From positions 12,315 to 76,314 of the forward strand of contig JBAZEY010000002.1 in NCBI GenBank assembly GCA_041653675.1: a stretch of 64,000 nt of DNA, written 5' to 3'. This document shows, one piece after another, positions 287 through 52,999 of the stretch. Under the pieces are notes generated by a model. That model ran no database searches, was not told where the DNA came from, and saw only the letters and a program-made list of their open reading frames with translations. Numbering within the stretch: the first letter of the stretch is position 1; every line of letters begins with the position of its first letter. Both the position numbers and the translations under genes were made by a program. Origin of the DNA: Patescibacteria group bacterium (GTDB taxonomy: Bacteria; Patescibacteriota; Patescibacteriia; XYB2-FULL-38-15).

Positions 287-416
287 CCCCGTAGTAGAAA
301 TTTGACTTGTATTTTACAATACAAATCTTAATAGTATATTAATTTTTATTATAAATAATACTTATTGCCAAAACATCTAGTCGCCGCTGACGACTTGTCA
401 AATTTTCACTACGGGG
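287..416. repeat. 130-bp hairpin element copy 1: terminal inverted repeats CCCCGTAGTAGAAATTTGAC ... GTCAAATTTTCACTACGGGG, inner GC hairpin GTCGCCGCTGACGAC, flanked by CATA direct repeats (283-286 and 417-420)
   Basis: Read directly from the sequence. Shares its termini with the copies at 12169-12299 and 52870-52999. Confidence 0.7.
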
Positions 417-423
417 CATAAAT

Positions 424-1017
424 TTAAAATGTTTTTTCTACTCCGCCCACGGTAATTACCGCTCCGCCAATTTTAGAAAACTCTTTCGCGGTTTGGAAAA
501 GCTGCGCCTTAAACATTTCGGCCCGACAATTATCCGCGCCCAAAACAAATACTTCTGGAGAAAAATCAATATACGCCATGCCGATCATAATTTTGACACT
601 ATTGATTTTTACTGTGTCCCCATCGTACGGCGCCTGGCCTGACTCATTTTTTTTCTGCTCACGGTAATTTATCATTTCTTCTTTACTCGGTAAGGCGGAA
701 TAATAACCTTGCGCTGCCTCAGCGGCAGTTGGACCAAGCAAAATTTCTTCAAACGCCCGGCGCTTTACAATAAGATCGTTCGGAACTGTTCGCTCTGTCG
801 GAAAAACTGCTTTACAGTCGTTTGAATTTTTATTCAAATTTTTATTGCCAAAAAATATTCTTACCGTCGTTTCTTTCGCTTCAACCTTTTTTGCTTCCTG
901 AACTGCATTTTTCAAATCAGCGCTAGCTTCTTTCATACCGCCAATATAACCAAAAAGCATCGCTCCTGCTGCGGCGGTTGAAATGATAATAAAAACTATT
1001 GCGATCTTCTTTTTCAT
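424..1017 (-). CDS. Secreted/lipoprotein with GerMN-like domain
   Basis: N-terminal signal/TM MKKKIAIVFIIISTAAAGA. The LLGPT...GYYSALP motif and C-terminal pattern resemble the GerMN domain. Confidence 0.4.
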   Translation of the reverse strand: MKKKIAIVFIIISTAAAGAMLFGYIGGMKEASADLKNAVQEAKKVEAKETTVRIFFGNKNLNKNSNDCKAVFPTERTVPNDLIVKRRAFEEILLGPTAAEAAQGYYSALPSKEEMINYREQKKNESGQAPYDGDTVKINSVKIMIGMAYIDFSPEVFVLGADNCRAEMFKAQLFQTAKEFSKIGGAVITVGGVEKTF

Positions 1018-1136
1018 AATTAAATATGAAACCGATTTGACTTTCTCCTAATATTATTTTAATCTGAATTTAAACTTCGGGCAATGGCGGCATATAAATA
1101 ATCTCGGGGAGGGATGGAAAAGGAGGGCTGGAGATT

Positions 1137-1262
1137 ATGCGCGAGGTTCTTGAAATTCTTGGCGGTGGCCTTCTGATCTTGGTACTTGCGGTCATGGCGG
1201 CAGCGCCGCTCTTCCTGCCGACTTTCCTGAAATATATCCAGGAGGAAAAGAACGAACAGTAG
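1137..1262 (+). CDS. 41-aa single-TM peptide (MREVLEILGGGLLILVLAVMAAAPLFLPTFLKYIQEEKNEQ) with strong SD AAAAGGAGG
   Basis: Manual translation. GC-rich codons and an AAGGAGG ribosome-binding site 9 nt upstream of the ATG. Not in the ORF track because it is under 60 aa. Confidence 0.35.
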   Translation: MREVLEILGGGLLILVLAVMAAAPLFLPTFLKYIQEEKNEQ

Positions 1263-1325
1263 TTCAACGACAAAAAGGAGGGTCAAAAGCTCATGGCAAT
1301 CGCCGTGGGCTTTCTTTTTTAATCT

Positions 1326-3251
1326 TTATCCGGCACTTGATCCGCCTCCGCCTCCACCTCCGCCGGCTCCCCCGCCTCCGCCAAATCCAGACGAACCAGA
1401 CGGACTGCTGTAGCTGACGACGGAATTCATATGTGAAGTCACACCCGCTAAAGAATTTGCAAAAATAACACTATTAAAACTGCTAAACGGCGTGGAACTT
1501 TGATACCAATCCGGCTGTGTTTTATAGATATCAGCAAATCTCTCCGCCCATTTTTGTTCCACCCCTAAAACTATGGCGTAAGATAAATATTTTTCAAATG
1601 TTTCCGGAGTACACGCCCCAAGTCTGAATCTTTCCGCAACTTGCAAATATTCCCTGAAGCCAAGCGCGTGCCATTTTACCTCAACTCCTTTTTCTGTAAG
1701 CGGCGGGGGTTTAATAACTAAATAAATAAACCATAAACCTAGCGAGATTAAAATTGCTGCTAACATTGAAAAAGAAAAATTAGGAAATAACGCTACGACC
1801 ATTGAAATAAAAATACCGGCTGCGAATAATACCAACAAAAAACTCATTTCACGAGCCAGGGGCATAGATCTAAAATATCCTTTTTCTTTGACCAATTTTT
1901 CCAAAACTTCTTTCGGTAACTTGGTAATCATTTTTTGAAAAGAAGTTTTGCTCGCCATATCTCGCAGATCGCTTAACTCAACTGTCTCGCCTGCTCCGAA
2001 AATTGCTTCTAAAAATTCTGCTTCGTAATCGGAGAGACTGGAATCACCCGCAAACTCCTTTCTCTTCGTTAGCGAATATTTTTTACTTTTCACCCATAAA
2101 GTTTTTTCTTCTCGCTCAGAAATTTTTAAATAACCGCGATAGGCCAGATCGATTAGCGTGGCCGTGAAGTCTTTAGAGCGGACGCTATTATAGACAAGTC
2201 CGCCCACTTCAGCCGGAAGCAATTTCGCCGGTGGATCGTATTGGGCAATAATCGTTTTTTTAAGTTTTGGCGCGCTTTGGTATTTCTTAAAAAGAAAAAT
2301 CCCGAGCAGAATCGGAATGAGATAACTCAATTTATCTAAAACATAAAACCACGTTGTTTTTTCCAGTTTAAAATCAGAGGTTATAATTTTTCCTGTTTCA
2401 AGCTTAATAGTTTTTTCTTTTTCTCCCGTAATTTCCCAACCAAATTTTTCTAGAGAAATTTTGTGCTCACCCAAAGAAATTTCATAATTTTCTTCAAGCA
2501 CCGCCGGGGTACGAAGATTGGTTTTTTCTCCGTCCAAAATTACCGCCGCCCCCTCGGGTTCAGAATTAACTTTCAAAACTCCGGCAGAGAAAACGATTCC
2601 TTTGGGCCAACCGGCGACAATCGTAAAATTTTCATAAGCCGGAATATCGCTCCCCCAAAATTTAAGAGTTTTTCCATCAATAATTTCGTAAGTTTCCGAA
2701 GTAGTCTTGGCTCCCGTTGCTCCGACATAAAGCATCTGTTTTAAATCACTAACCTCCGCTGCGCTCGGCAGATGAACTAAAACTTCCACTTCTCCGATTG
2801 GCACATCGCGATTCTCGGAAACCGCGTTCCAATAAAGTTCGTCATAGTCGAGAAAATATCCCAGACCGCCATGCACCTTATACTCAAATGTCCAAGTTTT
2901 TTGTGTGTCAACTAAATCAAAATTAATTTTAATAATAACCTGAGACGTATTTTCCGTTATTTCTATTTCCGGCGGTGCGAGTTCTCGGCCATCTTCATCA
3001 AAAACTTTTATATCACTAACCGCCCGAACTTTATTTTTAGAAATATCCCTGACCGTCCAGTGAAAATTTCCGTGAAAATTAAAAACCTGTGTTTCGCGAA
3101 CGACAAATGTGCTATCCTCATTTATATTTATATCCGCCGACCATTTTTCAAAATCCCACCATTTACTCGGAGTTTCCTCCGCCAAAACCGAACTGCCGGA
3201 AAATAAAAATAATGTTACTACCGCCGCGAGCAAAAATGCTTTTTTAAACAT
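1326..3251 (-). CDS. DUF2207-family membrane protein (signal peptide, large extracytoplasmic domain, TM helices, Gly-rich C-terminal tail)
   Basis: The architecture, including the terminal GGGGAGGGGGGGGSSAG tail, is typical of DUF2207 proteins. Confidence 0.55.
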   Translation of the reverse strand: MFKKAFLLAAVVTLFLFSGSSVLAEETPSKWWDFEKWSADININEDSTFVVRETQVFNFHGNFHWTVRDISKNKVRAVSDIKVFDEDGRELAPPEIEITENTSQVIIKINFDLVDTQKTWTFEYKVHGGLGYFLDYDELYWNAVSENRDVPIGEVEVLVHLPSAAEVSDLKQMLYVGATGAKTTSETYEIIDGKTLKFWGSDIPAYENFTIVAGWPKGIVFSAGVLKVNSEPEGAAVILDGEKTNLRTPAVLEENYEISLGEHKISLEKFGWEITGEKEKTIKLETGKIITSDFKLEKTTWFYVLDKLSYLIPILLGIFLFKKYQSAPKLKKTIIAQYDPPAKLLPAEVGGLVYNSVRSKDFTATLIDLAYRGYLKISEREEKTLWVKSKKYSLTKRKEFAGDSSLSDYEAEFLEAIFGAGETVELSDLRDMASKTSFQKMITKLPKEVLEKLVKEKGYFRSMPLAREMSFLLVLFAAGIFISMVVALFPNFSFSMLAAILISLGLWFIYLVIKPPPLTEKGVEVKWHALGFREYLQVAERFRLGACTPETFEKYLSYAIVLGVEQKWAERFADIYKTQPDWYQSSTPFSSFNSVIFANSLAGVTSHMNSVVSYSSPSGSSGFGGGGGAGGGGGGGGSSAG

Positions 3252-3771: not shown

Positions 3772-3781
3772 CGCTTCACGA

Positions 3782-11984: not shown

Positions 11985-12167
11985 TTAACTAAGGTTTAAA
12001 TTTTTGCGGATTTTTTCTATCTGCTCTGCTTCTATTTTTTTTATCGCCTTTTCCAAAACTGTCCTCTGGCGAAGCGATAAATCAGCCATAATTTTAGAGA
12101 ACTTTCGATAAGCCCCTTCTGCTTTTAAAATTTTCTCTTTTATAGATAAGTTTTTTTCTTCTGCCAT
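11985..12167 (-). CDS. Small hypothetical protein (60 aa, Lys/Glu-rich); start codon abuts hairpin element copy 2
   Basis: ORF track entry. Its ATG lies within the CATA flank of the element. Confidence 0.35.
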   Translation of the reverse strand: MAEEKNLSIKEKILKAEGAYRKFSKIMADLSLRQRTVLEKAIKKIEAEQIEKIRKNLNLS

Positions 12168-12168
12168 A

Positions 12169-12299
12169 CCCCGTAGTAGAACTTCTACTTATTTATGAGA
12201 TTAAATTATTTCACTATACACCCGCATTAAAATCTTCGACACCATCATCTGCTCTTCCATTTGTTCGCCGAGGCGAACTGTCGAAGTTTCACTACGGGG
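12169..12299. repeat. 130-bp hairpin element copy 2 (CCCCGTAGTAGAACTTCTAC ... GTCGAAGTTTCACTACGGGG; inner hairpin GTTCGCCGAGGCGAAC; CATA flanks at 12165-12168 and 12300-12303)
   Basis: Read directly from the sequence. Confidence 0.7.
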
Positions 12300-12357
12300 C
12301 ATACTTGTGGATAGATATTATATTTATCTATTTTATCATATTTTTGAAAAGATGAGG

Positions 12358-18482: not shown

Positions 18483-20060
18483 TTAAATTAGCGCCGCTCC
18501 AGTCATTTCATCTGGCTGCTTAATGTCCATTATTTTCAAAATTGTCGGAGCGACATCGGCTAAAACCCCAACCGAGGGCATTAAACTAAGATCTGCTTCT
18601 ACCGGAGGAATCGCGGCGATCTGATCCTTTAATTCTCGCCCGGCCAGGATAAAGGGCACAGCATTGGTACTATGTTCTTTATCAATATCTCCGGTTTGTA
18701 AATTAAAAACTTCTTCAGCGTTCCCATGATCCGCGGTAAGCGCCAAAACTCCGCCCATTGGAATTATTATATCCGCTATCTGGCCTACGCACTTATCTAC
18801 GGTCTCCACGGCTTCCACGGTCTCCTTATATTTCCCCGTGTGCCCAACCATATCGGCGTTCGCAAAATTAACCACAATAAAATCGTATTTCCGCGCCATA
18901 ATTTCCTTAATTAATTTTTCAGTAATAATTTTGGCGGACATCTCGGGTTTTTGATCGTAAGAAGCGACGTGCGGTGAAGGAACAATAATTCTGTCTTCTC
19001 CAGAAAATTCTTCTTCTCTCATGCCGTTAAAAAAGAACGTTACGTGAGCATATTTTTCCGTTTCCGCTATGTGAAGTTGTTTTAATCCGGCATCACTTAT
19101 AATTTTTGCCAGGCAAATTTTTACTTTTTCTGGCGGAAAAATAACTTCGACCGGCAAACCCTCTTCATATTCCGTCATTGTGGCGAAAAATAATTTTGGG
19201 AAAAATTTTTCTCTCTTAAATTTATCAAAATCTTTTATAACAAAAGATTTGGTCATTTCTCTCGCGCGGTCAGCGCGATAATTGAAAAAAATTACCGCGT
19301 CATCTTCCGAAATTGTGGCGACTGGTTTTTTTCTTTCCGTAATCACAACTGGAACAAACTCTTCGTCATAAATTTTCTTCGCATATGACGCTTCGATTGC
19401 TTTTATTGGATCAGAAAAATATTCTTCGCTTTTCCCTTCGGCAATGGCTAGATAAGCTTTTTCCGTTCTATCCCAACGATTGTCGCGATCCATCGCGTAA
19501 AAACGTCCGGAAACGGTGGCAATTCTTCCCACACCATACTCTTTAATTTTTTCTTGTAATTTTTTAATAAAATCGGATCCGCTGTTATAAATTGTATCTC
19601 GCCCATCAAGAAAACAATGGATGTAAACATTTTTTATTTTTTGCTCTTTGGCAAATTTCAGCAACGCATAAAGATGCTCACTTGTTGTATGAACGCGCCC
19701 GGTACTCACAAGACCCATCAAATGAAGACTTGATTTATTTTTTTTAACATGTGCGGCGGCGTCTCTTAAAGCTTTATTACTAAAAAAAGAACCGTCACCG
19801 ATGGCTTTATTAATTCTAGGGAGCGTTTGATAAAAAATTCGTCCCGTACCCAAATTCAAATGGCCAACTTCTGAAGTCCCCATTTCTCCCCAAGAAAGGC
19901 CTACTTCATCCCCAGAAGCCCGTAGGGTCATCGCGGGATATGTAGCTATTAATTTATCAACATTCGGCGTTTTAGCGCCTGAAATGGCATTCCCCTTTCC
20001 TTTCGGAGCAACCCCCCATCCGTCTAAGATAGCAAGCACTACTGGTTTTGGACGATTCAT
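18483..20060 (-). CDS. gpmI: 2,3-bisphosphoglycerate-independent phosphoglycerate mutase
   Basis: LAILDGWGVAP N-terminus. Full-length iPGM. Confidence 0.85.
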   Translation of the reverse strand: MNRPKPVVLAILDGWGVAPKGKGNAISGAKTPNVDKLIATYPAMTLRASGDEVGLSWGEMGTSEVGHLNLGTGRIFYQTLPRINKAIGDGSFFSNKALRDAAAHVKKNKSSLHLMGLVSTGRVHTTSEHLYALLKFAKEQKIKNVYIHCFLDGRDTIYNSGSDFIKKLQEKIKEYGVGRIATVSGRFYAMDRDNRWDRTEKAYLAIAEGKSEEYFSDPIKAIEASYAKKIYDEEFVPVVITERKKPVATISEDDAVIFFNYRADRAREMTKSFVIKDFDKFKREKFFPKLFFATMTEYEEGLPVEVIFPPEKVKICLAKIISDAGLKQLHIAETEKYAHVTFFFNGMREEEFSGEDRIIVPSPHVASYDQKPEMSAKIITEKLIKEIMARKYDFIVVNFANADMVGHTGKYKETVEAVETVDKCVGQIADIIIPMGGVLALTADHGNAEEVFNLQTGDIDKEHSTNAVPFILAGRELKDQIAAIPPVEADLSLMPSVGVLADVAPTILKIMDIKQPDEMTGAALI

Positions 20061-20102
20061 AAAACTTATAACTTAAACTTGTCCGCCTTTGGCGGAAAAC
20101 TT

Positions 20103-35941: not shown

Positions 35942-36604
35942 GATTCGACCTCCTTTGCAGTCAAAGAAAGGAACAAACGACCCCAACTTCCTGTGCTGTT
36001 TTTCTGTCCTGCACCTCCCTAAGGTAAGATACCGGTTGGGCCCTTCCGGGAATCGGGTGACTTCGTCAACCACCCGATAGCAACGCAGTATCTCTCGCAA
36101 TAAGACGGCGGGCACTGAGGAAATTATAGCACAGATCTCTCCGCAAAGACAACTGAGCCGACCGTTGTCTCTGAGCGTGCGCACCAACCGACAATTCTCG
36201 TGCAAGGCCCAAACTACTAGACCTTCAGCAGTTGTCTCGAGCCCAGCTGGATAGATGTGACAAACAAATGGTCGTTTGCCATACAGACGGCACCTTCGCC
36301 CCAGCCGACACGCCAACGGACAGTCGGGATGACGAACCCCCAAATCGTATCCGCCGTCGGACTTCTTCGGCAGGCAGTGTATGAAATCGGCCCGACGATT
36401 GAGCTGCAAGATTGGCACACCCGCACGATAAAGCCTTCCAACTTCCGGCGGCAAAAGCCAAATGAAGCCCTGGCAATCCGGATCTCGACAACCAACGCAA
36501 TCCAAACCGTAACGACGGTAAAGAAGGTCAAAAGCCTCGCTGATTTGGCCGATCGCCTTCAAGGTGAGGGCTGATTGCTTTTCTTTGTTGGCTCTACTCT
36601 TCAT
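35825..36604 (-). CDS. YkgJ/UPF0153-type Cys-cluster (putative Fe-S/Zn) protein with Lys-rich C-terminal tail; translationally coupled to rSAM gene (ATGA overlap)
   Basis: CVGCRDPDCQG followed by C..L...CRLYGKRPFVCHIYP, which resembles the YkgJ C...C.IY..RP..CR.YP signature. GC-rich. Confidence 0.45.
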   Translation of the reverse strand: MKSRANKEKQSALTLKAIGQISEAFDLLYRRYGLDCVGCRDPDCQGFIWLLPPEVGRLYRAGVPILQLNRRADFIHCLPKKSDGGYDLGVRHPDCPLACRLGRRCRLYGKRPFVCHIYPAGLETTAEGLVVWALHENCRLVRTLRDNGRLSCLCGEICAIISSVPAVLLREILRCYRVVDEVTRFPEGPNRYLTLGRCRTEKQHRKLGSFVPFFDCKGGRIMSKCKGVLDSAKISEIKVRAKEAPKTTTRKRVKKTQKG

Positions 36605-37944
36605 CTGACCACCTCGTCAAGGGCATGAACTTGGAGCAGGCGGCTGACGAACAAACGGATTTCAACCGCTTCGATTTCGTCAGCGAATTGCCGAACCAGG
36701 TCAACCTCGTTGAACTCGCTCTGGCCCAAGATACACTGAGCCACCCTCAAAGCCGTCGGATCCAGTTTCACGGTCTGGTAACGAGTAACCAAGTATTTAT
36801 TCGGATACTTGGTCAGCAGCTTCATGTACCGATTCGGCCTGAGACGACGGTAAACTGTCGGATATCTCTCGGCCAACTTAGCCGATGTCCGGCGACGCGG
36901 CAGGCGGATCGGCGGCTTGCGCATTCCGCGTACGGCATAATCGACGCAAAACTGATTTGAGCAGTTCACGTCGACCTTACAACCGCAAGTACACTCAAGC
37001 AGCAATGGACAATCCCTACATGGTTCGGTGACCCAAGCCAAGTCGCGATAAACGTCAAGAGACCGGCTGTTCCAAATCTCGGCCAGAGTTTCTTCCAGCA
37101 CGTTGCCGAAAATGAGTTGGGACTGATTGCAGATGCGAAACTCGCCGCGAGGGTTGATCGCCCCGAACGAAACGCCAACTCCGCAGTTCGACGTGAGACC
37201 TTCTCGGATCAGTCTTTCGTCGAGGCAGTACGGTATCGCAGTCCCAAAGCCGACCCGGCCGCCGAGTTCAGGAAAATCTCGGCGAGCCTGAAGCATTTGA
37301 CCGACCGCGACGCGGAACTCTTCAAGGCTGGGCTTAAGCTTGGGGTGACTGGCATTCTTCGCCCCCAGCCCGCCGTCTTCGTAGCGATCCACGTAGATGG
37401 ATTCCATGCCGAGACTGACCGCGATCTTGATGATCCCGTATATCTGATCAAAGTTGTACCCAGTCAACACTGGAATGCAGCGCACATCGTGTCCCGCTTC
37501 GACGTAGGATCTGATAGTTTCAAGAGTCCTATGAAATCCTCCAGGAATTCCTGTGTGCATCTCGTGCGTCTGCGGATTATCGCCATGAAGGGGCACACCA
37601 AAACAGGCGATCTTGGGTGAAACTCCCCTCATTACAATGAGGCCGTTCGTGACGATAGTCACCGACGAAGTCGGGCTAAGCAAATTCACATAACGGTTGA
37701 TCCGCTCCACGGGAACGAGACTGGGTTCTCCTCCGATGAGATAGACGTGAGGAATTTGATCCTCTGCCACTCTCTCCACGATGCTGTCTACGACCGAGGG
37801 ATCGAAGTGTCTATTCCTCTCCGGGTTGTAACAAAAAATGCACCTGCTATTGCAAGCGTAACTCATCTCAATGTGGACCAGGTGCGGAATAGAGCCGTGC
37901 CGAACGCGGATAGCCCTAACCATTTTTTTACTGCGTGGCTTCAT
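36601..37944 (-). CDS. Radical SAM enzyme with C-terminal SPASM/twitch-like Cys cluster and ~100-aa basic C-terminal extension
   Basis: CNSRCIFC (Cx3Cx2C) near the N-terminus. C-terminal CRDCPLLLECTCGC plus further Cys residues. A 2-nt gap after the RNHCP gene. Confidence 0.75.
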   Translation of the reverse strand: MKPRSKKMVRAIRVRHGSIPHLVHIEMSYACNSRCIFCYNPERNRHFDPSVVDSIVERVAEDQIPHVYLIGGEPSLVPVERINRYVNLLSPTSSVTIVTNGLIVMRGVSPKIACFGVPLHGDNPQTHEMHTGIPGGFHRTLETIRSYVEAGHDVRCIPVLTGYNFDQIYGIIKIAVSLGMESIYVDRYEDGGLGAKNASHPKLKPSLEEFRVAVGQMLQARRDFPELGGRVGFGTAIPYCLDERLIREGLTSNCGVGVSFGAINPRGEFRICNQSQLIFGNVLEETLAEIWNSRSLDVYRDLAWVTEPCRDCPLLLECTCGCKVDVNCSNQFCVDYAVRGMRKPPIRLPRRRTSAKLAERYPTVYRRLRPNRYMKLLTKYPNKYLVTRYQTVKLDPTALRVAQCILGQSEFNEVDLVRQFADEIEAVEIRLFVSRLLQVHALDEVVR

Positions 37945-37946
37945 GG

Positions 37947-38267
37947 CTAGTTCCTCGTCCCGGCGACAACTCTCGTAGATAGTTGCACTACGAGGGCCAT
38001 GTCATCCGTGGGAGATGTCTTGTTGTTCTTGATCATCCCGCATTTTTGACAACGATGCACAATTGCGTACTTGCCACCCTTAATTTTTACGCCAATCGGC
38101 TCCATCATCCCCCGGCATTCGGAAAGTCTGTCGCCAGGGAACGCATCAACGTGTTTGCTCCACAGACATCGCGGACAGTGGTTGGTGTAGCCATCACCCC
38201 TGACCTTGGCTCCACAATTTTGGCACCGAAAGTCTTCTTGACGGCGTTCGAATCTTTTTGTCTCCAC
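37947..38267 (-). CDS. RNHCP-domain zinc-ribbon protein (GTG start)
   Basis: The YTNHCPRCLWSKH motif plus CQNCG and CQKCG pairs. SD GAAGGAGGAG 5 nt before the GTG. Confidence 0.55.
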   Translation of the reverse strand: METKRFERRQEDFRCQNCGAKVRGDGYTNHCPRCLWSKHVDAFPGDRLSECRGMMEPIGVKIKGGKYAIVHRCQKCGMIKNNKTSPTDDMALVVQLSTRVVAGTRN

Positions 38268-39187: not shown

Positions 39188-40225
39188 ATGATTCCGGAAA
39201 TCATTAAAGCTGAAGAAAAATTCAAGGAACTTGAGGCCGAGCTCGCTCGCCCCGAGGTGGTTTCTGATCGGGAAAAGTTAAAAAAAGTTTCCCAAGAATA
39301 TAGTGATTTGAAAGAAGTAATGGAAAAAATAAATAAATTCCACGCGCTGGAAAAAGCCGCGGTTGAAACGGAAGTTATCGCCAAACAAGATGTTCCCGAA
39401 ATGGCCGCGATTGCTAAAGAAGAATTGGAAAAAATTCGGCAAGAAAGATCAGTGCTCGAAGCGGAAATCAAAGAAGAGCTGACGCCGAAAGATCCGCTGG
39501 ACAAAAGAAATATTATTGTGGAAATCCGCGCCGGTGCCGGCGGCGACGAAGCCGCGCTTTTTGCCGCGCAACTTTTCCGAATGTATTCCAGATTTGCTGA
39601 ACGAAAAGGTTGGCAGGCAAGGTTAATTTCCGCCAACCGCACCGATCTTGGCGGGTTTAAAGAAATTATTTTTTCAGTTATTGGCAAAGGCGCGTGGGGA
39701 AATTTAAAATTTGAAAGCGGTGTGCATCGCGTCCAGCGCGTTCCGGATACGGAAAAAAGCGGCCGCGTCCATACCTCCACCGCTTCCGTCGCCGTCCTTC
39801 CCGAAACTGAAGAAATTGATATTAAAATTGAACCAAAAGATTTGCGCATTGATACCTTTTTATCCGGCGGCCACGGCGGGCAGAGCGTGCAAACGACATA
39901 TTCCGCGGTGCGCATTACTCATATTCCGTCAGGCCTTGTTGTCGCCTGCCAAGACGAACGCTCCCAGCAGCAAAACCGCGAAAAAGCCATGCAGGTTTTG
40001 CGTTCCCGCCTTTTTGTAATGGAGCAAGAAAAACGCCAGGCGGCGGAAGTCGCGGCGCGGCGTTCACAGATTGGTTCGGCAATGCGCGCGGAAAAAATCA
40101 GAACATACAATTTTCCTCAAGACCGCGTTTCCGACCATCGCGTCAAAGAAAGCTGGCACAATATTAATAACGTAATGGACGGTGAGCTAGATCAAATTAT
40201 TGAAGTACTAAAAAAGGAAATATAA
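39188..40225 (+). CDS. prfA: Peptide chain release factor 1
   Basis: GGQ motif ([12 protein letters not shown]), PxT-region architecture and overall length. Confidence 0.9.
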
Positions 40226-40239
40226 AAAATTAAAAAATA

Positions 40240-40265
40240 ATCCGGCCGCAAGGCCGGTTTTTTGA
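40240..40265 (+). terminator. prfA intrinsic terminator ccggccgcaaggccgg + T-run
   Basis: Perfect 6-bp GC stem followed by TTTTTTG. Confidence 0.6.
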
Positions 40266-40280
40266 TATAAATTTTGACAT

Positions 40281-40592
40281 AAAAAAAGAGTCGGTCGAAC
40301 GAGGTGTTCGACCGACGGGCACAACGCGAAACGTAGCGGTGTGCAAAGAAGGGTGACCTCCGTACCCGCTAAAAGCGGATTTGGAGGATCGAAAACGCGG
40401 GGGAGATTTCAGCCCACCTGCATAACAGGCAAGCCGGGTTCCTGCTGGCCACCCCTGGGTCCTTCCTCCACGAGATCATCCGCGCTTCAACGCGCGGCTT
40501 CCACTCGAGGACTCCGGATTTGGGATGAGAAAAAATTACCCACGACGCCAGTGCGCTGCCGGCATCAACCGAACAGGACTCCCCTTTACCCT
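40281..40592 (-). ncRNA. Candidate ~300-nt GC-rich noncoding RNA transcribed from the minus-strand half of the palindromic divergent promoter, ending at a minus-strand intrinsic terminator (hairpin 40290-40316 + T7)
   Basis: No convincing ORF in any frame. Promoter TTGACA-17-TAAAGT on the minus strand. Terminator gtcggtcgaacacctcgttcgaccgac-TCTTTTTTT on the minus strand. Multiple internal GC hairpins. Confidence 0.35.
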
Positions 40593-40599
40593 GCACTGC

Positions 40600-40664
40600 A
40601 CTTTAACATAATTATCAAAATTTGTCAAGAGTCTCTTGACAAATTCATCTTTTTGTAATATTAT
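40600..40664. promoter_or_regulatory. Divergent promoter pair sharing a perfect 27-bp palindrome AATTTGTCAAGAG-T-CTCTTGACAAATT (40619-40645); plus-strand TTGACA-17-TATTAT, minus-strand TTGACA-17-TAAAGT
   Basis: Both -35 hexamers lie within the palindrome arms. Spacers are exactly 17 nt. Confidence 0.5.
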
Positions 40665-40788
40665 AAAAACATCAAAACAGGGTGGCCTTGTGTTCTTGGC
40701 GCGTGCCAGAAACGCAAGGAAGGTGGCCCTAAGCCTCGGCCTGATGGACAGGACGAGTTGATAATAGGGAAGGTAGTGGAGGACAGAG

Positions 40789-41004
40789 ATGTCGAGTAGT
40801 GTTTTCTGGGACGACGGTACAAGGCTCTCAGCGGACGGTGTCCCCATCATCCCCGATGGTGCGGGACCGCGCGAGATTTCACAGCGCCGCAGGACGAGCA
40901 GACAGCTCGACGACTTCTTCCCCGACTGGGAGGAGGAACACCGCCGGAACGAGGAAGCCAGGCGGCGCGACCGCGACCGCCGTCGTGATGGCGTCCGCTG
41001 CTAA
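40789..41004 (+). CDS. GC-rich 71-aa Arg/Asp-rich small protein
   Basis: SD GGAGGA 6 nt before the ATG. Strong terminator downstream. About 125-nt structured leader. Confidence 0.45.
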   Translation: MSSSVFWDDGTRLSADGVPIIPDGAGPREISQRRRTSRQLDDFFPDWEEEHRRNEEARRRDRDRRRDGVRC

Positions 41005-41162
41005 CACCAGCCCCAGCCCACCCACCAACAACGTGAGAACGCGCGAGCAATCGCTCGTCCTCCGTCCGAATTTACGCCGCCCCTCCCGGACTCGGCGTAA
41101 GAGCCCGCGTAGCGGATCGCAGGGGACATGAGTCCCGCCTCCCTCCCCGCTGCCGGGCGACC

Positions 41163-41222
41163 AGCCCGTGGATTGTTTTGGAGACCTCCCCTCCTCCGAA
41201 CAATCCACGGGCTCTTTTTTAT
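41163..41222 (+). terminator. Intrinsic terminator (agcccgtggattgtt ... aacaatccacgggct + T-run)
   Basis: 15-bp perfect stem followed by CTTTTTTATT. Confidence 0.6.
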
Positions 41223-41391
41223 TATCAAGCGAGTGAGAGAAATGAACTTATTCATTTCCGAGCGAGCGCAGATAACACGGAGTATTATCAAGCGAGTGAG
41301 AGAAATGAACTTATTCATTTCCGAGCGCCCGGCCTCGCCGAAGACGGCAAGTCGAGGCGGGAGCGCAGATAACGCGCAGTATGTTATAATG
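41223..41391 (+). promoter_or_regulatory. Tandem 42-bp direct repeats each containing 20-bp palindrome GAAATGAA-CTTA-TTCATTTC, plus repeated AGCGCAGATAAC(A/G)CG(G/C)AGTAT motif, ending in extended -10 TGTTATAAT just upstream of prmC
   Basis: Units at 41223-41264 and 41286-41327 are identical. Centre-to-centre spacing is 63 bp. TGTTATAAT at 41383-41391. Confidence 0.5.
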
Positions 41392-41396
41392 ATCCT

Positions 41397-42257
41397 ATGA
41401 CTATCCAAAAATATTTAATTTGGGCGATAAAAACTTTACAAAAAAATAAAATCGTCTCCCCAGCTCTCGATGCCGAGGTTCTTTTATCTTTTGTTATAAA
41501 AAAACCAAAAGAATTTTTATACGCGCATTCTGAAAAAAAATTAACTGCGGTACAAATTTCAAAGTTTAAAAAACTCATTATCTGCCGAGCAAAGCACGAG
41601 CCGGTCGCCTATATTATTAGCCACAAATATTTTTACGGCTTGGATTTTTTTGTAAATAAAAATGTTTTGATCCCCCGCCCGGAAACGGAAATATTAGTTG
41701 AAACCACGATAGAGAAAAAACCAACCACGATTATTGACGTCGGAACGGGCAGTGGCGCCATTGCCGTAACGCTTGCACATAATTTACCCAATGCAAAAAT
41801 TTTCGCCACAGAAATCTCTTCGGCCGCTGCCAAAGTAGCGCAAAAAAATGCACGACATCACAAAACGAAAATTACATTTTTGCACGGCAATTTATTGCAA
41901 CCGTTTTCAAATCTAAAATCAAATATCACAAATCTTAAATCTTTGACGATAGCTGCCAATCTCCCCTATCTCACCACAAAACAATGGCAAAAATCCCAGC
42001 TAGAAATAAAAAAATACGAACCGCGGACGGCACTCGACGGCGGCGCGGACGGTTTAAAATATTATCGCGAACTTTTACAACAAATAGAATTGCTAATCAC
42101 TAGCCACAAATTATCCATTACTTCCGTTTTAGAAATTGATCCTTCCCAAAAAAAATCTATTGCGAAATTAATCAAACGCCGTTTTCCCTCCGCGAAAATA
42201 GAAATAAAAAAAGACCTCGCCGGCCGAGATCGAATCGTTATTTTTAAAATAAATTAA
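41397..42257 (+). CDS. prmC: Release factor glutamine N5-methyltransferase PrmC/HemK
   Basis: GTGSGAIAV motif I and NLPY (NPPY-variant) motif. Confidence 0.8.
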   Translation: MTIQKYLIWAIKTLQKNKIVSPALDAEVLLSFVIKKPKEFLYAHSEKKLTAVQISKFKKLIICRAKHEPVAYIISHKYFYGLDFFVNKNVLIPRPETEILVETTIEKKPTTIIDVGTGSGAIAVTLAHNLPNAKIFATEISSAAAKVAQKNARHHKTKITFLHGNLLQPFSNLKSNITNLKSLTIAANLPYLTTKQWQKSQLEIKKYEPRTALDGGADGLKYYRELLQQIELLITSHKLSITSVLEIDPSQKKSIAKLIKRRFPSAKIEIKKDLAGRDRIVIFKIN

Positions 42258-46183: not shown

Positions 46184-47047
46184 TTAATGCAATGATTTTG
46201 GCGCGGCTGAAGCAATAAATTCTAAAACATCCGCGTGAGATGAGACTATGCCTCTTGTTTTTTCGTCCAGATCTTCGCCGTGCTTTGCCATAAATCCTAA
46301 AACCTCACCAAAGTTTTTTAATTCTCTCCCCTCACCCAAGAATCCTTCGCGAATCAGAACATAGTTAATCGATTTCAGTAATTGTTTTTGGGCCGAAGTT
46401 ATAAACTCGTATTTTTCCCGAGCGTCTTCCACGGCATTTGACGGATCAGTCATTAATTTTTGCAAAGCAACCGTTTTTTCCGGACTTAATTCCAAAACAA
46501 TTCGCGGCATTTCCGCCTTTCCCCTGTTTCCATCCTGATCTTCAAAATATTTTATCTCGGTCATTTTTCCCCTGCCGAGTTTTTCAAAAATTTTATCCGT
46601 CTTGCGGAAGAGAACTTTTTCATCCGAGGAAGTCGTCGCGTCGATTGCGAGATGAACAAATTTATCAGTATCTTCGTCATGAAATGTCACGACAAAATCC
46701 GTACCATTCATTACGTCATCATATTCTGAAGTTTTTTCTACGGAAGTAACGCCGTCGCTAAACCAGCCATGAACTTTTATTCCTTCCATTAAAACATATT
46801 CCAAGGCGACCGCCTCGCTCCTCCGCTCATAAACATAATCCGGAGATTTTTTTATTTCCCCTACTCTTTTCATATCCCCCGCCACAACTTCCCGCGTGTA
46901 AGGCTGGCCGATAAATTTTTCCGGATTTGGCGATGAATTTTTCCAAGGCCGAGCGATTTCACGATTAAAATTTTCGTCGTCAGTTTGTCCCCAAACTCTC
47001 CGGCGATCCAACTCCGCCGCCATTCTGCCTTCAATTCCTACTGCCAT
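46184..47047 (-). CDS. Hypothetical protein
   Basis: ORF. No family recognised. Confidence 0.4.
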   Translation of the reverse strand: MAVGIEGRMAAELDRRRVWGQTDDENFNREIARPWKNSSPNPEKFIGQPYTREVVAGDMKRVGEIKKSPDYVYERRSEAVALEYVLMEGIKVHGWFSDGVTSVEKTSEYDDVMNGTDFVVTFHDEDTDKFVHLAIDATTSSDEKVLFRKTDKIFEKLGRGKMTEIKYFEDQDGNRGKAEMPRIVLELSPEKTVALQKLMTDPSNAVEDAREKYEFITSAQKQLLKSINYVLIREGFLGEGRELKNFGEVLGFMAKHGEDLDEKTRGIVSSHADVLEFIASAAPKSLH

Positions 47048-47179
47048 AATTAGAAAAATTAGATTGCGCTTTAATTATATCACAAAAATTTGGATAAAAA
47101 AACGGCCCCGCTTCATTTCCTTTGCTTTGTGAGCATCAGATTTGAAGCGAGGCCACGATCTACCTCCTACTTGAGCGCC

Positions 47180-47752
47180 CTAGACGGCGAGCTTGCGGAG
47201 GACGAGCCACCCGAAGTTCGGGCTGAAGTCGCGGTCGAGGCAGTTCAGGCCCAAGTCGCGCTCGCCGCCGTGCCGGCGCGCGACCGGCGCGTACCAGACG
47301 CCGTCCTGAATCTGCCAACGGGCCGTGATGATGAGCGGATGGTCGAGCTGGATATCCGGGTGGGCGGCGATGAACTCCATCGCCCGGCGCAAACCGCCAA
47401 GCAACCGGTAGCCGAGTTTCTCGAGTTCCGCGAAGGCCTCTTCGCCGGTCATCATCCGGTCGAAGTGGTGCTCGTAGACTTCCCAGTAGTGCTCGTCGGG
47501 AGCCACCGGCTCCAAGGGACAGTTCGCCTCGTTGAAGTCGGGGTTGACCCAGTCCTGCTTGCACATGTCGAGCAGCCGCCGGAAATTGATGACCGGCAGA
47601 CTTGCGGCCAACGCGCCCTTGAGCGCCAACTCCAACTCGAAGTTGTGGATGATCCAATACTGAGCCATCTCGGGCGTAATTCCCCGCGGCAAATTCCGAA
47701 TCACCGCCGCCGCAAGTTCCGCGAACTGATCCGTTTTGATCTTCTTTCCCAT
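47180..47752 (-). CDS. GC-rich hypothetical protein (190 aa), self-contained module
   Basis: SD AAGGAGGAAACGA-ATG, promoter ~125 nt upstream and a minus-strand terminator near 47100-47150. Two longer ORFs overlap it on both strands. Confidence 0.5.
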   Translation of the reverse strand: MGKKIKTDQFAELAAAVIRNLPRGITPEMAQYWIIHNFELELALKGALAASLPVINFRRLLDMCKQDWVNPDFNEANCPLEPVAPDEHYWEVYEHHFDRMMTGEEAFAELEKLGYRLLGGLRRAMEFIAAHPDIQLDHPLIITARWQIQDGVWYAPVARRHGGERDLGLNCLDRDFSPNFGWLVLRKLAV

Positions 47753-47885
47753 CGTTTCCTCCTTGGCTTATCCTGGTCCATCTCTTCCGAGAGGCAGGAC
47801 TTACCAAAAGCGGCTGGAACCCATTCCCAGCCTTGTTTTGAAGGTCATAAAACCGCCAAAAGAAAGCAAGGATTTTCAACACTTT

Positions 47886-47914
47886 ATAATAGCCCACTTT
47901 TGCCATTTTGTCAA
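47886..47914 (-). promoter_or_regulatory. Promoter TTGACA-17-TATTAT (minus strand) for 47180..47752
   Basis: gagagGTTGACAAAAtggcaaaagtgggcTATTAT read on the minus strand. Confidence 0.4.
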
Positions 47915-48161
47915 CCTCTCTCCCCCTTGTCCCGGTTAGAGGTCCTCGGCATAATTTTTTTAGAAAAAAAATTATGCTCAGTTTTAATAAGCATAGAAGT
48001 CGCCAAATCTCCCACCCTGAAAACCACCTAAAATAAAGACAAGACAGACCTCTAACGGGACTTGTTTTCATAAAAACATTATGTTATAATAACTTAATAA
48101 ATATTAGCGAATTTCACCTCGTTTTCGCCTCTGGCGGGAGGGGTTAAGTTTTTTTGTTATT

Positions 48162-50195
48162 ATGTCTCCAAAAGTTAAAGCCAAAAAAGAAGAATACGGC
48201 GCAAAACAAATTACCGTACTTGAAGGCCTTGAAGCGGTCCGCCGCCGACCTGGTATGTACATCGGTTCAACCGGTCCTGAGGGTTTGCATCATTTAGTTT
48301 GGGAAGTGGTTGATAACTCCATTGACGAAGCTATGGCCGGCCACTGCACGGAAATTGAAGTCCGTCTTCTCTCGAACAGCCGCGTTTCAGTCTACGACAA
48401 CGGCCGCGGCATTCCGGTTGATATTCATAAACAAACGAAAAAATCCGCTTTGGAAACCGTTTTGACAATCCTCCACGCCGGCGGAAAATTCGGCGAAGGC
48501 GGATATAAAGTTTCCGGCGGTCTGCATGGCGTCGGCGTTTCGGTTGTGAACGCCCTTTCAAAATACATGCGCGCCGAAGTGAAACGCGACGGAAAACTTT
48601 GGATGCAGGAATATGCCAAGGGAAAACCGCAGGGCAAAGTAAAACCTATTGGAAATGCCCGCGGTACCGGCACAACAATTATTTTTGAGCCAGATCCGGA
48701 AATTTTTACCACAACCGAGTTTGATCTGCAAACCATTCTCACCCATCTCCGCCAACAGGCCTATCTCACCAAAGGCGTAAAAATTTTCATCTTTGATGAA
48801 CGAAAATCGGAAAAAGGAAAAAAGAAAGACCAACCAACTTACGCCTTTTATTTTGAAGACGGCGTTGCTTCTTACGTCGGTTTTCTAAATCATCATAAAG
48901 AAGTAAAACAAGAAAATGTTTTTTACGTTCAAAAAGACTCCGCGGGCGTTGGCGTGGAAGTTGCCGTACAATATACGGCTGATTTTAAAGAAACTGTTTT
49001 TGCTTTTTGTAATAATATTTTCAATCCGGAAGGCGGAACGCACATGGTTGGTTTCCGTACCGCACTCACCCGTGTTTTGAATAATTACGCGAGAAATAAG
49101 GGATATCTGAAAGAAAAAGATGAAAATCTGACTGGTGAAGACGTGCGCGAAGGTTTGACCGCCGTCGTCTCCGTCAAAGTTAAAGACCCGCAATTTGAAG
49201 GCCAGACAAAAGCCAAACTCGGAAACCCTGAAGTCCGGCCGGCGGTTGACACAATTTTTTCCGAAGCTTTCACGACATTTTTAGAAGAACATCCTCGCGA
49301 CGCCGAAGGAATTATTGAAAAAAGTATTTTGGCCTCCCGCGCGAGAAACGCGGCCCGCGTCGCCCGCGAAACAATTTTAAGAAAAGGCGTGCTTGAAGGA
49401 TTGACTTTGCCGGGAAAACTTTCCGATTGTTCAAGCCGCGAAGCGGAAAAAACCGAACTCTATATTGTTGAGGGCGATTCCGCCGGCGGCTCGGCCAAGC
49501 AAGGCCGCGACCGAGATTTTCAAGCGATTCTCCCGCTCCGCGGAAAAATCTTAAACGTGGAACGGGCCCGGCTTGATAAAATGCTCGCGAACAATGAAAT
49601 AAAATCTTTGATTATCGCCATGAGAACAAACATTGGCGAACAATTTGATATCACGGGTTTGCGATACGGAAAAATTATTATTATGACTGATGCTGACGTT
49701 GACGGCGCGCACATCCGAACCCTGCTTTTGACTCTTTTCTTCCGTTATTTCCCCGAACTGATTAATAAGGGACATATTTATATTGCCCAACCGCCGCTTT
49801 ACAAAATCCAATCGGGCAAAGAAGCCCATTATGTTTTCAGCGATGAAGAAAAAGATAAGGTTGTCGCCGAATTTCAGAAAAACAAAAAACCTGATGCTAA
49901 AAAATTAAAAAAAGAAGTTGAAGAAAAAGTGGAAGGCGAAGTTGTGGAGGGCGAAGAAGCAGCCGCGACCGTTTCCGGCATTAATATCCAGCGCTACAAA
50001 GGTTTGGGCGAAATGAATCCTGAGCAACTCTGGGAAACAACCATGGATCCGGCGAGACGCCTAATGAAACAAGTAAACGCCAACGACGCCAAAGCAGCCG
50101 ATGAAACTTTTAGTATTTTGATGGGCGACGAGGTTGAGCCGAGAAAGAGATTTATTCAAACCCACGCGAAAACGGTAAAAAATTTAGATATATAA
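48162..50195 (+). CDS. gyrB: DNA gyrase subunit B (with lineage-specific C-terminal insertion)
   Basis: GHKL ATPase motifs, the Toprim motif EGDSAGGSAKQGRDR and PLRGKILNVE. Confidence 0.9.
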   Translation: MSPKVKAKKEEYGAKQITVLEGLEAVRRRPGMYIGSTGPEGLHHLVWEVVDNSIDEAMAGHCTEIEVRLLSNSRVSVYDNGRGIPVDIHKQTKKSALETVLTILHAGGKFGEGGYKVSGGLHGVGVSVVNALSKYMRAEVKRDGKLWMQEYAKGKPQGKVKPIGNARGTGTTIIFEPDPEIFTTTEFDLQTILTHLRQQAYLTKGVKIFIFDERKSEKGKKKDQPTYAFYFEDGVASYVGFLNHHKEVKQENVFYVQKDSAGVGVEVAVQYTADFKETVFAFCNNIFNPEGGTHMVGFRTALTRVLNNYARNKGYLKEKDENLTGEDVREGLTAVVSVKVKDPQFEGQTKAKLGNPEVRPAVDTIFSEAFTTFLEEHPRDAEGIIEKSILASRARNAARVARETILRKGVLEGLTLPGKLSDCSSREAEKTELYIVEGDSAGGSAKQGRDRDFQAILPLRGKILNVERARLDKMLANNEIKSLIIAMRTNIGEQFDITGLRYGKIIIMTDADVDGAHIRTLLLTLFFRYFPELINKGHIYIAQPPLYKIQSGKEAHYVFSDEEKDKVVAEFQKNKKPDAKKLKKEVEEKVEGEVVEGEEAAATVSGINIQRYKGLGEMNPEQLWETTMDPARRLMKQVNANDAKAADETFSILMGDEVEPRKRFIQTHAKTVKNLDI

Positions 50196-50315
50196 CCGTT
50201 AAGGGCTTTAAACTTGCGTTATTTTCCCCCTGTGCTATACTATCAATAAATAGCCCCCAGGGCTGTTTTAAATACCATAAATTTCGCTAAAAATCGCTTA
50301 AATAAAATAAAAAAC

Positions 50316-50513: not shown

Positions 50514-50558
50514 TAAACAAAATTTTGATTTTTGAACTTTGACTTTTGAATTTTATCT

Positions 50559-51104: not shown

Positions 51105-51170
51105 ATAAAATTACATTGTTATATTGCTAAATGCTTCTAGTTTAGCTCTTAACTGTGTAGCGTAAAAAGT

Positions 51171-51596: not shown

Positions 51597-51618
51597 AAAA
51601 TAATTGAAAATCTAATTT

Positions 51619-52053
51619 ATGGCTTTCAAATTTAGCTCAATTAGAACTGTCTATTTCTATCTAATCGCCCTGATTGCATTGATGATGATTGTCTGGGGCA
51701 CGGTTGATCTCGCGAATCTCGGACTTAGAACTTGGGTTTTTAAAAACGCTGATAAAGCCGACGACTGGTCAATGCCTATGCCGTATCTGACAGCTGAAGT
51801 GAAAATGGGAGAAACGGCGGAACGCTGCGCGGAAAAATGCGACCTTACTGATAATGATAAACAACAGATTCAAAATTGGCTTGCTGAATATAAAAATTGG
51901 CAAGACCAAAATAATTTACGCACAGCAAGAAAACAGAAAAACGCCGTTCGCGATATTTCTATGTTAGTTGTTGCTATTCCCCTATTTGTCTGGCACTGGA
52001 AAATGATCAGTAAAGAAACAAAAGAAGCAAAAGAAAACAATAAAGAAGTTTAA
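51619..52053 (+). CDS. Hypothetical membrane protein inserted between rplK and rplA
   Basis: ORF with N-terminal TM helices. Its position inside the L11-L1 operon is unusual. Confidence 0.4.
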   Translation: MAFKFSSIRTVYFYLIALIALMMIVWGTVDLANLGLRTWVFKNADKADDWSMPMPYLTAEVKMGETAERCAEKCDLTDNDKQQIQNWLAEYKNWQDQNNLRTARKQKNAVRDISMLVVAIPLFVWHWKMISKETKEAKENNKEV

Positions 52054-52113
52054 ATAAAATAATTAATTTCGTGGGAGTCCGCCAAAGGCGGACGTTATTA
52101 CCACCAAAAACTT

Positions 52114-52791
52114 ATGCGCGGAAAACGCTATCAGGAGGCAAAAAAATCCATTGACCCTAAAAAGAGCTACTCTCTCGCTGAGGCTGTGGACATGATTAAA
52201 AACGGTCCTAAAGAAAAATTTGATGCCGGCGTGGAAGTCCACATCAAACTCGGCATTGATCCCAAAAAAGGCGATCAATTAGTGCGCGGCACTTTAGTTT
52301 TACCGCACGGAATTGGCAAGACCAAAAAAATCGCGGCTTTCGTTGAACCGGCTTTGGAAAAAGAAGCCAAAGAAGCCGGAGCGGAAATCGTCGGCGGCGA
52401 AGATTTGATTAAAGAAATTAAATCTTCGGAAAGAGCTAATTTTGAAATCGCCGTGGCGACTCCGACCATGATGCCTAAATTGGCCCAGATCGCGAAAATT
52501 TTGGGTCCAAAAGGCTTGATGCCAAACCCGAAGACAGAAACGGTGAATCCAAATATCAAAAAAATCATTGGTGAATTGAAAAAGGGCAAAATCAACTTTA
52601 AAAATGATGATGGCGGAAATATTCATCAATTGCTCGGCAAAGTTTCCTATGATAAAGAAAAACTTTTGGCAAATCTGACAATGTTTGTTGAAGCGGTGAA
52701 AAAAGCCAAACCGGCCGCTGCCAAAGGCGTTTATATTCAAACCGCGGTACTTTGCACCACAATGGGCCCGGCAATAAAAATCGGAGTATAA
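52114..52791 (+). CDS. rplA: 50S ribosomal protein L1
   Basis: Conserved L1 fold motifs along the full length. A hairpin gtccgccaaaggcggac lies in the leader at ~52074-52092. Confidence 0.9.
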   Translation: MRGKRYQEAKKSIDPKKSYSLAEAVDMIKNGPKEKFDAGVEVHIKLGIDPKKGDQLVRGTLVLPHGIGKTKKIAAFVEPALEKEAKEAGAEIVGGEDLIKEIKSSERANFEIAVATPTMMPKLAQIAKILGPKGLMPNPKTETVNPNIKKIIGELKKGKINFKNDDGGNIHQLLGKVSYDKEKLLANLTMFVEAVKKAKPAAAKGVYIQTAVLCTTMGPAIKIGV

Positions 52792-52809
52792 TTCAAAATC
52801 TATACAGCA

Positions 52810-52838
52810 AAAACACCCTGGAAAACGGGGTGTTTTTA
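52810..52838 (+). terminator. rplA intrinsic terminator (acaccctggaaaacggggtgt + TTTT)
   Basis: Stem-loop followed by a T-run. Confidence 0.5.
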
Positions 52839-52869
52839 GTCTGCTTTTTGGCGCTATTTCCCCTCTTGA

Positions 52870-52999
52870 CCCCGTAGTAGAATTTCGACTTTACTATTAT
52901 CTTTTATTGTTTCTAGATTTACGTCGCGCAATAAAGATTTTGTATTTTTCTCGTTTTATTTGGCCCGCAGAGCGGGCTTGTCGAAATTTCACTACGGGG
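52870..52999. repeat. 130-bp hairpin element copy 3 (CCCCGTAGTAGAATTTCGAC ... GTCGAAATTTCACTACGGGG; inner hairpin GGCCCGCAGAGCGGGC; TTGA flanks 52866-52869 and 53000-53003)
   Basis: Read directly. Intergenic, with no adjacent ORF start. Confidence 0.7.

Follow-up and report, generated by a model that had tools for sequence, protein, structure and literature searches.

Mobile hairpin elements in a Patescibacteria genome and a small GIY-YIG nuclease element that shares their ends

What are the three 130-bp hairpins that recur in one stretch of a Patescibacteria genome, and how did they come to lie where they do? The stretch of DNA analysed here (64,000 nucleotides of contig JBAZEY010000002.1, assembly GCA_041653675.1, positions 12,315 to 76,314; hereafter the window) carries them at 287–416, 12169–12299 and 52870–52999 (copies 1, 2 and 3; 130, 131 and 130 bp), all on the plus strand and 12–40 kb apart. 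Each begins with CCCCGTAGTAGAA and ends with TTCACTACGGGG. These positions, lengths, orientation and termini had been reported in a first-pass annotation of the same DNA and were verified in the sequence; no fourth copy was found in the window at up to two mismatches, a threshold at which 0.7 such 13-mers are expected by chance. The annotation had proposed a non-autonomous element of the MITE (miniature inverted-repeat transposable element) type, a recombination hairpin site or a structured RNA as candidates. The elements are mobile foldback inverted-repeat elements that are flanked by 4-bp duplications, and those in the window, which code for no protein, are MITEs. The coding form of this Patescibacteria family is a minimal element of ∼315 bp, in which the same inverted repeats enclose a single gene, for a GIY-YIG nuclease.

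Further copies, which the first-pass annotation had suggested seeking in other genomes, are numerous. A scan of species representatives (one genome per species) with the pattern CCCGTAGTAGAA-N90-120-TTCACTACGGG yielded at least 115 loci, and a scan of JGI metagenomes, in which stem positions 10–11 were left free, yielded at least 120. The ∼220 distinct copies pooled from the genome and metagenome scans underlie the counts of element anatomy given below. Nearly all of these loci are from Patescibacteria/Parcubacteria. Lineage-named records among the matches listed belong mostly to Parcubacteria/Paceibacteria (Wolfe-, Nealson-, Uhr-, Buchanan-, Zambryski-, Taylor-, Portnoy- and Andersenbacteria); the remaining ones are labelled Saccharibacteria, Gammaproteobacteria or only 'bacterium'. 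The viral collection gave a single match (IMGVR_UViG_3300009285_005821, positions 411–542 of locus L121), which may come from a phage of these bacteria or from a misclassified contig. A full-text literature search for the terminal sequence, for Patescibacteria MITEs, for leaderless genes and for GIY-YIG together with MITE or YhbQ returned no description of the element family.

Non-coding elements of the family are 118–145 bp long and have arms of 20–21 nt that are 96% complementary. The ends are YCCCGTAGTAGAA and TTCACTACGGGR, continued by variable, GTCRAA-like inner arms. A conserved core, CCCG...CGGG, is extended by one base per side, and this outermost pair is C-G in 65 of 121 elements and T-A in 53, while 3 have non-complementary bases there. 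A duplication of 6 bp was considered and rejected: 6-nt repeats flank only 22 of the 121, and the base beside CCCG complements the base beside CGGG in 118 of 121, so that both bases are part of the stem. The outer 13 bp of the stem are conserved and the inner 7 bp covary; positions 14–20 are 90–97% Watson-Crick with all four pair types represented, and pairing ends abruptly past position 20–21. In a 60-sequence alignment, 96.3% of the stem cells are paired compared with 80.8% after shuffling, and 176 double-sided changes are seen compared with 53. None of 500 shuffles scored as high, and sliding the partner arm reduced pairing to 33–49%. The covarying closing stem of ∼20 bp, which had been proposed from the three window copies, is thereby strongly supported. 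When folded as single-stranded DNA, copies 1 and 3 form 9 bp, a 2×2 internal loop and another 9 bp, the distal stem of copy 2 is disrupted, and the three z-scores range from −3.4 to −6.9.

The internal loop replaces the single bulged A that the first-pass annotation had placed in the stem. The arms are equal in length, and positions 10–11 hold a symmetric tandem mismatch, A·C followed by G·T (A296·C407 and G297·T406 in copy 1). The search with positions 10–11 free recovered one AG arm and one GA arm in 111 of 118 elements (94%), and since these positions were unconstrained in that search, the mismatch is a conserved asymmetry that orients the element. Other details also needed revision. The inner arms are complementary as annotated, but those of copies 2 and 3 had been interchanged: copy 2 carries CTTCTAC/GTCGAAG, with one T·C mismatch (12186 against 12282), and copy 3 carries TTTCGAC/GTCGAAA. 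All three window copies contain an inner GC hairpin (379–395, 12263–12278 and 52963–52977), but across the family it lies beside the GA arm in only 47 of 218 elements. The interiors, which had been considered unconserved, have diverged among the window copies but are subfamily-specific, as relatives in another genome demonstrate (see below). They contain no conserved open reading frame (ORF), a single 33-aa chance ORF being the only one present.

Several lines of evidence establish that the elements move. Exact 4-nt direct repeats abut 83 of the 121 copies from genomes and 73 of the 110 from metagenomes (∼67%), and the repeats annotated beside the window copies (CATA/CATA, CATA/CATA and TTGA/TTGA) were all found as described. 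Their reading as target-site duplications is confirmed by a comparison of two loci that have promoter and coding sequence in common: L065 reads A/TGGA/element/TGGA/AATC (slashes mark junctions), and L158 reads ATGGAAATC. L158 is therefore the orthologous empty site for the L065 insertion, and TGGA was duplicated. Relatives of the window copies also occur in unrelated flanks. Along its entire length, copy 3 is ∼88% identical to an element (L109) of the metagenome-assembled genome JAHIRI01, and copy 1 is ∼78% identical to a second element (L082) of that genome, with two compensatory changes between their arms (ATTTGAC/GTCAAAT and ATTCGAT/ATCGAAT). Neighbouring elements in tandem arrays (L083 and L099) are separated by exactly one duplication, and nested insertions are present at L042, L216 and L273. 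Short non-coding units with terminal inverted repeats, duplications backed by an empty site, copies dispersed in unrelated flanks and a coding partner with the same ends (described below) support the MITE-like candidate of the first-pass annotation.

The tandem arrays bear on another of its candidates, a recombination hairpin site. The array junction has the form arm–6 nt–arm, like the core site of a recombinase, and the imperfect stem with conserved unpaired features, the variable centre and presumed recognition as a folded single strand recall integron attC sites; the elements could on these grounds be attC-like or Xer-type sites for a tyrosine recombinase. That reading fails on motif, array structure and enzyme. 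There is no GTTRRRY/RYYYAAC core, as the annotation itself had observed in setting the elements apart from standard attC sites, and no R/L box consensus; cassette arrays and IntI are absent, the window copies being widely spaced; the targets contain no arm-like sequence; and target-site duplications are present. Among 896 ORFs beside elements no protein family was enriched, only housekeeping families recurred, no transposase or recombinase family (integrases included) was enriched, and no Y1 enzyme was found. We regard sites of this kind as extremely improbable.

The size and content of the loop vary more widely than the window copies suggest. Mini-elements of 56–97 nt, which consist of two arms and a short loop, have 4–6-nt flanking repeats of their own (L010 3000–3064, L143 4179–4237, L235 738–796, L241 12903–12972, L042 1318–1376, L216 1186–1244 and L273 669–732), and some of them are nested in larger elements or in a GIY-YIG element. 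Hairpins of 31–33 nt that consist of arms only, with a GCGAAGC-type loop, were seen at L042 6427–6456 and L068 3863–3893. In a single case among ∼248 elements, the interior is a complete tRNA-Gly(CCC) gene (792–863, in the L032 element 764–888, within 724–926, minus strand). This element has inserted, with a CAAG duplication, in a resident tRNA-Gly(CCC) gene, at its anticodon loop/stem, and it has thus broken the host copy while supplying a replacement. A general derivation of the interiors from tRNAs was rejected, as a tRNA occurs in only this 1 of ∼248 elements.

The sites of insertion are far from random. The first-pass annotation had observed two window copies exactly at the start codon of a small minus-strand ORF; this is correct for copies 1 and 2, which abut the ATG of 41-aa and 60-aa ORFs, but it had missed a family-wide rule that involves start codons and −35 boxes. 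An outward ORF of 60 codons or more starts directly at 133 of 219 distinct elements (61%), compared with 3.5% of random positions. In the class with a T-A terminal pair, whose duplications are TGAA, TGGA and TTCA, the terminal A of the element supplies the A of ATG (A/TGAA). In the C-G class, whose duplications are TATG, CATA, TTGA, TCAA and CTTG, the ATG lies inside the duplication (G/TATG). At a further 29 of the 219 elements (13%; TTGA, TCAA and CTTG classes), a TTGnnn-N16–18-TAnnnT promoter begins at the junction, the gene-side duplication being the first bases of a canonical TTGACA-N16–18-TATAAT promoter. On the gene side, the duplication together with the terminal A or G of the element restores the start codon or −35 box.

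A TAnnnT box is most frequent 6–7 nt upstream of the distal start-codon copy (58 of 134 sites, compared with 259 of 1168 control ORFs), and few Shine-Dalgarno-like motifs are seen there; control ORFs have their peak at the same 6–7 nt and match a loose Shine-Dalgarno-like pattern in 150 of 1168 cases. A TAnnnT box at this distance, usually without a Shine-Dalgarno motif, would mean that many target genes lack a leader and that their transcription starts where the element lies; the pattern suggests that leaderless genes are widespread in these Patescibacteria genomes. Elements lie in either orientation to the host gene (89 and 45). An outward promoter or Shine-Dalgarno sequence borne by the element was considered and rejected, the arm sequence containing no −10-like hexamer and no Shine-Dalgarno motif at a useful distance; translational bypass and upstream-ORF coupling do not fit element lengths that lack frame periodicity, and many copies are untranscribed.

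The window copies illustrate both kinds of site. Copy 1 (C-G class; arms 287–306 and 397–416) is flanked by CATA at 283–286 and 417–420. It lies between the stop codon of a 197-aa Germane-domain gene (424–1017, minus strand) and the start of the 41-aa ORF (160–285), whose minus-strand ATG (283–285) falls within the left duplication. Copy 2 (C-G class; arms 12169–12188 and 12280–12299) has CATA at 12165–12168 and 12300–12303; the left duplication contains the minus-strand ATG (12165–12167) of the 60-aa ORF (11985–12167), and on the minus strand a TATAAT box is located 14 nt upstream of the distal ATG copy. In both of these start-codon copies the gene is on the AG side. Copy 3 (C-G class; arms 52870–52889 and 52980–52999) belongs to the −35 class, with TTGA at 52866–52869 and at 53000–53003, the latter in the −35-like context TTGATT. 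It stands downstream of the terminator (52809–52837) of rplA, which encodes L1, and upstream of the promoter of a dCMP-deaminase gene. The sole promoter found near it by the consensus scan is TTGCCT-N17-TAAAAT at 53011–53039, 12 nt beyond the right duplication.

Since most copies lie between a promoter and a start codon, they should be transcribed as a 5′-terminal hairpin of ∼20 bp, and RNase III is retained by Patescibacteria (PMC12641178). On this basis the hairpins could be imagined as structured 5′ leaders, as sites of RNase III processing or as stabilisers of mRNA that serve host regulation, and a structured RNA or leader had been among the candidates of the first-pass annotation. The duplications and the empty site point to insertion rather than evolution in situ, and at least 13% of the elements are upstream of a −35 box, outside the transcript of that gene. 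The two orientations to the host gene are also difficult to reconcile with an RNA function, and the elements have no Rfam match either at the gathering score or at E ≤ 1 (a tRNA scan of the window also found none). Among the non-Watson-Crick cells of the variable stem, read on the host-gene strand, 8 are G·U and 9 are A·C; G·U pairs are no commoner than A·C, which indicates a constraint on DNA or on both strands rather than on one RNA. RNA-level effects may exist as a consequence of insertion, but a role in RNA as the reason for these elements is very improbable.

The first-pass annotation had also recommended a search for an autonomous partner such as a transposase or recombinase. A coding relative with the same ends was indeed found, through unpaired termini, but it encodes a GIY-YIG nuclease instead. 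The 312–320-bp form (312–317 bp at L021, L117, L158 and L178) has the same ends, mismatch, covarying arms and type of duplication as the MITEs, and its interior is occupied by one ORF of 88–90 aa. The ORF starts a few nucleotides past the AG arm and its stop codon directly precedes the GA arm, and its reading direction is AG arm to GA arm in 10 of 10 coding elements examined. Its product is a stand-alone GIY-YIG nuclease domain (PF01541, E 4e-19, residues 1–69 of 90), and the nearest PDB sequences are those of the UPF0213 proteins 1zg2 (E 6e-5) and 1ywl and of SLX1. A protein search at E ≤ 1e-8 returned 816 homologue clusters; among the matches listed, the proteins are 82–104 aa long, mostly 86–97, and clusters that carry a source name come from Patescibacteria-group lineages. 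Many homologues are on very short contigs, as expected of repeats. Six of six homologues picked by protein similarity alone, each at a different locus, are bounded by the same ends.

The insertion sites of coding elements have the features described above for the non-coding ones: TATAAT, 7 nt, TATA/element/TATG and then the host gene at L250, a TGAA duplication at L260, and a −10 box 6 nt upstream of ATGAA at L276. Pairwise comparison of the nuclease ORF gave a pN of 0.21 and a pS of 0.87 (saturated), which indicates strong purifying selection.

The nearest known system, judged by analogy, appears to be the Ssn/NTS pair of nuclease and hairpin. Ssn proteins are single-domain GIY-YIG nucleases that bind hairpin repeats only as single-stranded DNA (ssDNA) and cleave it a few nucleotides upstream; hairpin repeats present in hundreds of copies flank their genes, the loop is dispensable for cleavage, and the authors remarked on an arrangement of the genes that is like that of insertion sequences (IS) (Chenal et al., Nat Commun 2025, PMC11893778). 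Both systems have a GIY-YIG-only protein, here of ∼90 aa, a gene bracketed by inverted-repeat hairpin sequence with many gene-less copies elsewhere, and hairpins oriented by conserved asymmetric features. They differ in architecture, as the gene lies here within one large hairpin whose arms are ∼270 nt apart, whereas an Ssn gene lies between two complete 28-nt hairpins. They also differ in the 4-bp duplications, empty sites, nested and tandem insertions and start-codon/−35 placement seen here, and in host range, which is Patescibacteria here and mainly Pseudomonadati for Ssn. The SRM consensus HGTCWYN(0-2)YYVSBRHN(0-5)WNVSBRGN(0-2)RNCYNB matched 0 of 242 elements searched with their flanks, while the NTS control matched.

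The parallel with Ssn invites another reading, in which a domesticated system of this kind serves the host: the nuclease would act site-specifically on ssDNA, for example to control incoming or replicating ssDNA in DNA-scavenging bacteria, and the hairpins would be recognition sites that spread otherwise or anciently and are not now transposed. Apart from the shared architecture, a small single-domain GIY-YIG gene bracketed by multicopy hairpin repeats, the conserved outer 13 bp with their asymmetric mismatch resemble a protein recognition site, and the mutually diverged interiors of the window copies imply old insertions. Continuing mobility is nevertheless evident from the 4-bp duplications, the empty site, the nested and tandem insertions and the 78–88% identical copies at non-homologous sites. 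With the gene in the hairpin's loop, gene and site move as a unit, and each homologue checked is at a different locus. The published SRM motif is absent. We consider a domesticated system unlikely.

In the explanation that we favour and consider probable, MITEs related to a GIY-YIG coding element, the nuclease would recognise the folded arms in ssDNA, by likeness to the Ssn nucleases, and would cut at the foot of the hairpin. The conserved 13 bp and the asymmetric mismatch would form the recognition site; the inner stem would need only to pair, and the loop would be free to stay empty or to carry the nuclease gene or, in one case, a tRNA gene. A single-stranded hairpin substrate is supported by the DNA-level complementarity of the arms, by mobile units of ∼60 nt and by the Ssn precedent. 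The nuclease would mobilise its own element and, in trans, the MITEs, and insertion just downstream of a host promoter would supply transcription to a nuclease gene that has no promoter of its own. Staggered cuts of 4 nt at donor and target, followed by host ligation, are possible and would account for the inheritance of duplication type within subfamilies.

Whether the GIY-YIG protein itself is the mobilising enzyme is a more tentative matter. If so, the ∼315-bp unit would rank as the smallest autonomous DNA transposon known and would found a new mechanistic class, a proposal that we put forward at somewhat less than even confidence. We are equally reserved about the character of that class, which would be driven by a nuclease, move via a folded single-strand hairpin, make 4-nt staggered cuts that regenerate the target and be directed to promoter landmarks. 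The landmarks would be the +1/start codon in leaderless genes and, at the −35 box, its upstream edge. Such placement may stem from recognition of DNA distorted by RNA polymerase, host transcription being borrowed and the host signal restored.

A number of points weigh against our explanation. No GIY-YIG gene is present in the window or in the 10 kb beyond its left end (L001), and the missing SRM motif counts here as well. To our knowledge, GIY-YIG enzymes cut by hydrolysis, and strand-transfer chemistry is not known for them. The nuclease gene could be a passenger, as is the tRNA-Gly gene in one element, and the bias towards start codons and −35 boxes may come partly from selection against harmful insertions rather than from true targeting. 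In addition, distant small GIY-YIG paralogues (30–47% identical) lie inside or against tRNA genes (L176 ∼2570–2960, L209 ∼570–960, L012 6167–6570, L004 5450–5870 and L017 2750–3150, given in ORF reading direction). There the 5′ part of the tRNA is duplicated (e.g., GCCCATAGCTCAGTTGGTA) and the ORF is preceded by a long GC-rich hairpin of a different kind; judged by sequence, these may be a second type of GIY-YIG mobile element, with tRNA genes as targets.

If the nuclease gene were a passenger, another enzyme would be needed, and an unlinked conventional transposase such as an IS1380/piggyBac-like DDE enzyme could mobilise the MITEs, with the GIY-YIG gene as a selfish passenger or homing gene in some copies. 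Elements of the piggyBac/IS1380 type have CCC...GGG ends, a 4-bp duplication (as in piggyBac, roughly so in IS1380) and potentially seamless excision; the likeness to the present elements is one of resemblance only. The capacity of the interiors for unrelated cargo, as with the tRNA-Gly gene of L032, and the mobility of other GIY-YIG paralogues in different contexts would also fit. On the other side, no element longer than ∼320 bp with these ends was found in ∼1.9 Mb of element-containing loci, where distant terminus pairs gave nothing at 1–3 kb, no DDE gene with these ends was found, and no transposase family is enriched nearby. The GIY-YIG clade is tied to the ends in all six cases sampled by protein alone, and the target is not TTAA, the duplications being TGAA, TGGA, TATG, CATA, TTGA and TCAA. 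Elements of 56–70 nt that have duplications, and of a size down to ∼60 nt, are hard to fit with the synapsis of two double-stranded ends. Mobilisation by such a transposase is accordingly judged decidedly unlikely.

The GIY-YIG-linked family also stands apart from other small repeats of bacteria. It has in common with bacterial MITEs such as Correia of Neisseria, RUP and ERIC the short, non-coding form, the terminal inverted repeats, the target-site duplication and the dispersed intergenic copies, often beside genes and co-transcribed as hairpins. The bacterial MITEs known so far descend from IS elements whose transposases are of the DDE (or HUH) type, whereas the sole coding relative here is a GIY-YIG nuclease element of only ∼315 bp; moreover, the inner half of the arm varies freely while remaining complementary, and the choice of target, at start codons and −35 hexamers, is precise to the single nucleotide. 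Repetitive extragenic palindromic sequences (REP) and REPINs with their RAYT partners, which are Y1 HUH enzymes, are similar in being hairpin extragenic repeats that are long-lived in a lineage, in the partner nuclease gene that they flank and in a proposed mechanism of recognition of folded ssDNA. They differ in the superfamily of the enzyme and in the absence of target-site duplications from REPINs, and no Y1 transposase is found near the elements described here.

Three further features of the window were observed. The cumulative GC skew has its minimum at ∼47000–48200, genes to the left of it being almost all on the minus strand and those to the right (from 48162) on the plus strand; this switch could mark a replication origin. 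The G+C content is raised in patches at 36000–38000 (0.54) and 40000–42000 (0.49), compared with ∼0.41 elsewhere. Two neighbouring paralogues at 18483–21665 on the minus strand encode cofactor-independent phosphoglycerate mutase (525 and 520 aa).

Prokaryotic transposition proceeds by DDE, DEDD, HUH, serine, tyrosine and Cas1 mechanisms. If the GIY-YIG protein does move these elements, a new enzyme class would be added to them, together with a minimal autonomous element of ∼315 bp, and Ssn-type ssDNA nucleases would gain a mobile-element origin or role that has so far only been suspected by the Ssn authors. A small hairpin-specific nuclease could also serve as an ssDNA tool. The elements are a rare bacterial example of insertion in expression signals with simultaneous rebuilding of those signals. 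They break assemblies and can mislead start-codon calls in these candidate phyla; at the same time, their insertions form a natural map of promoters and leaderless genes in uncultured Patescibacteria, whose expression signals are poorly known.

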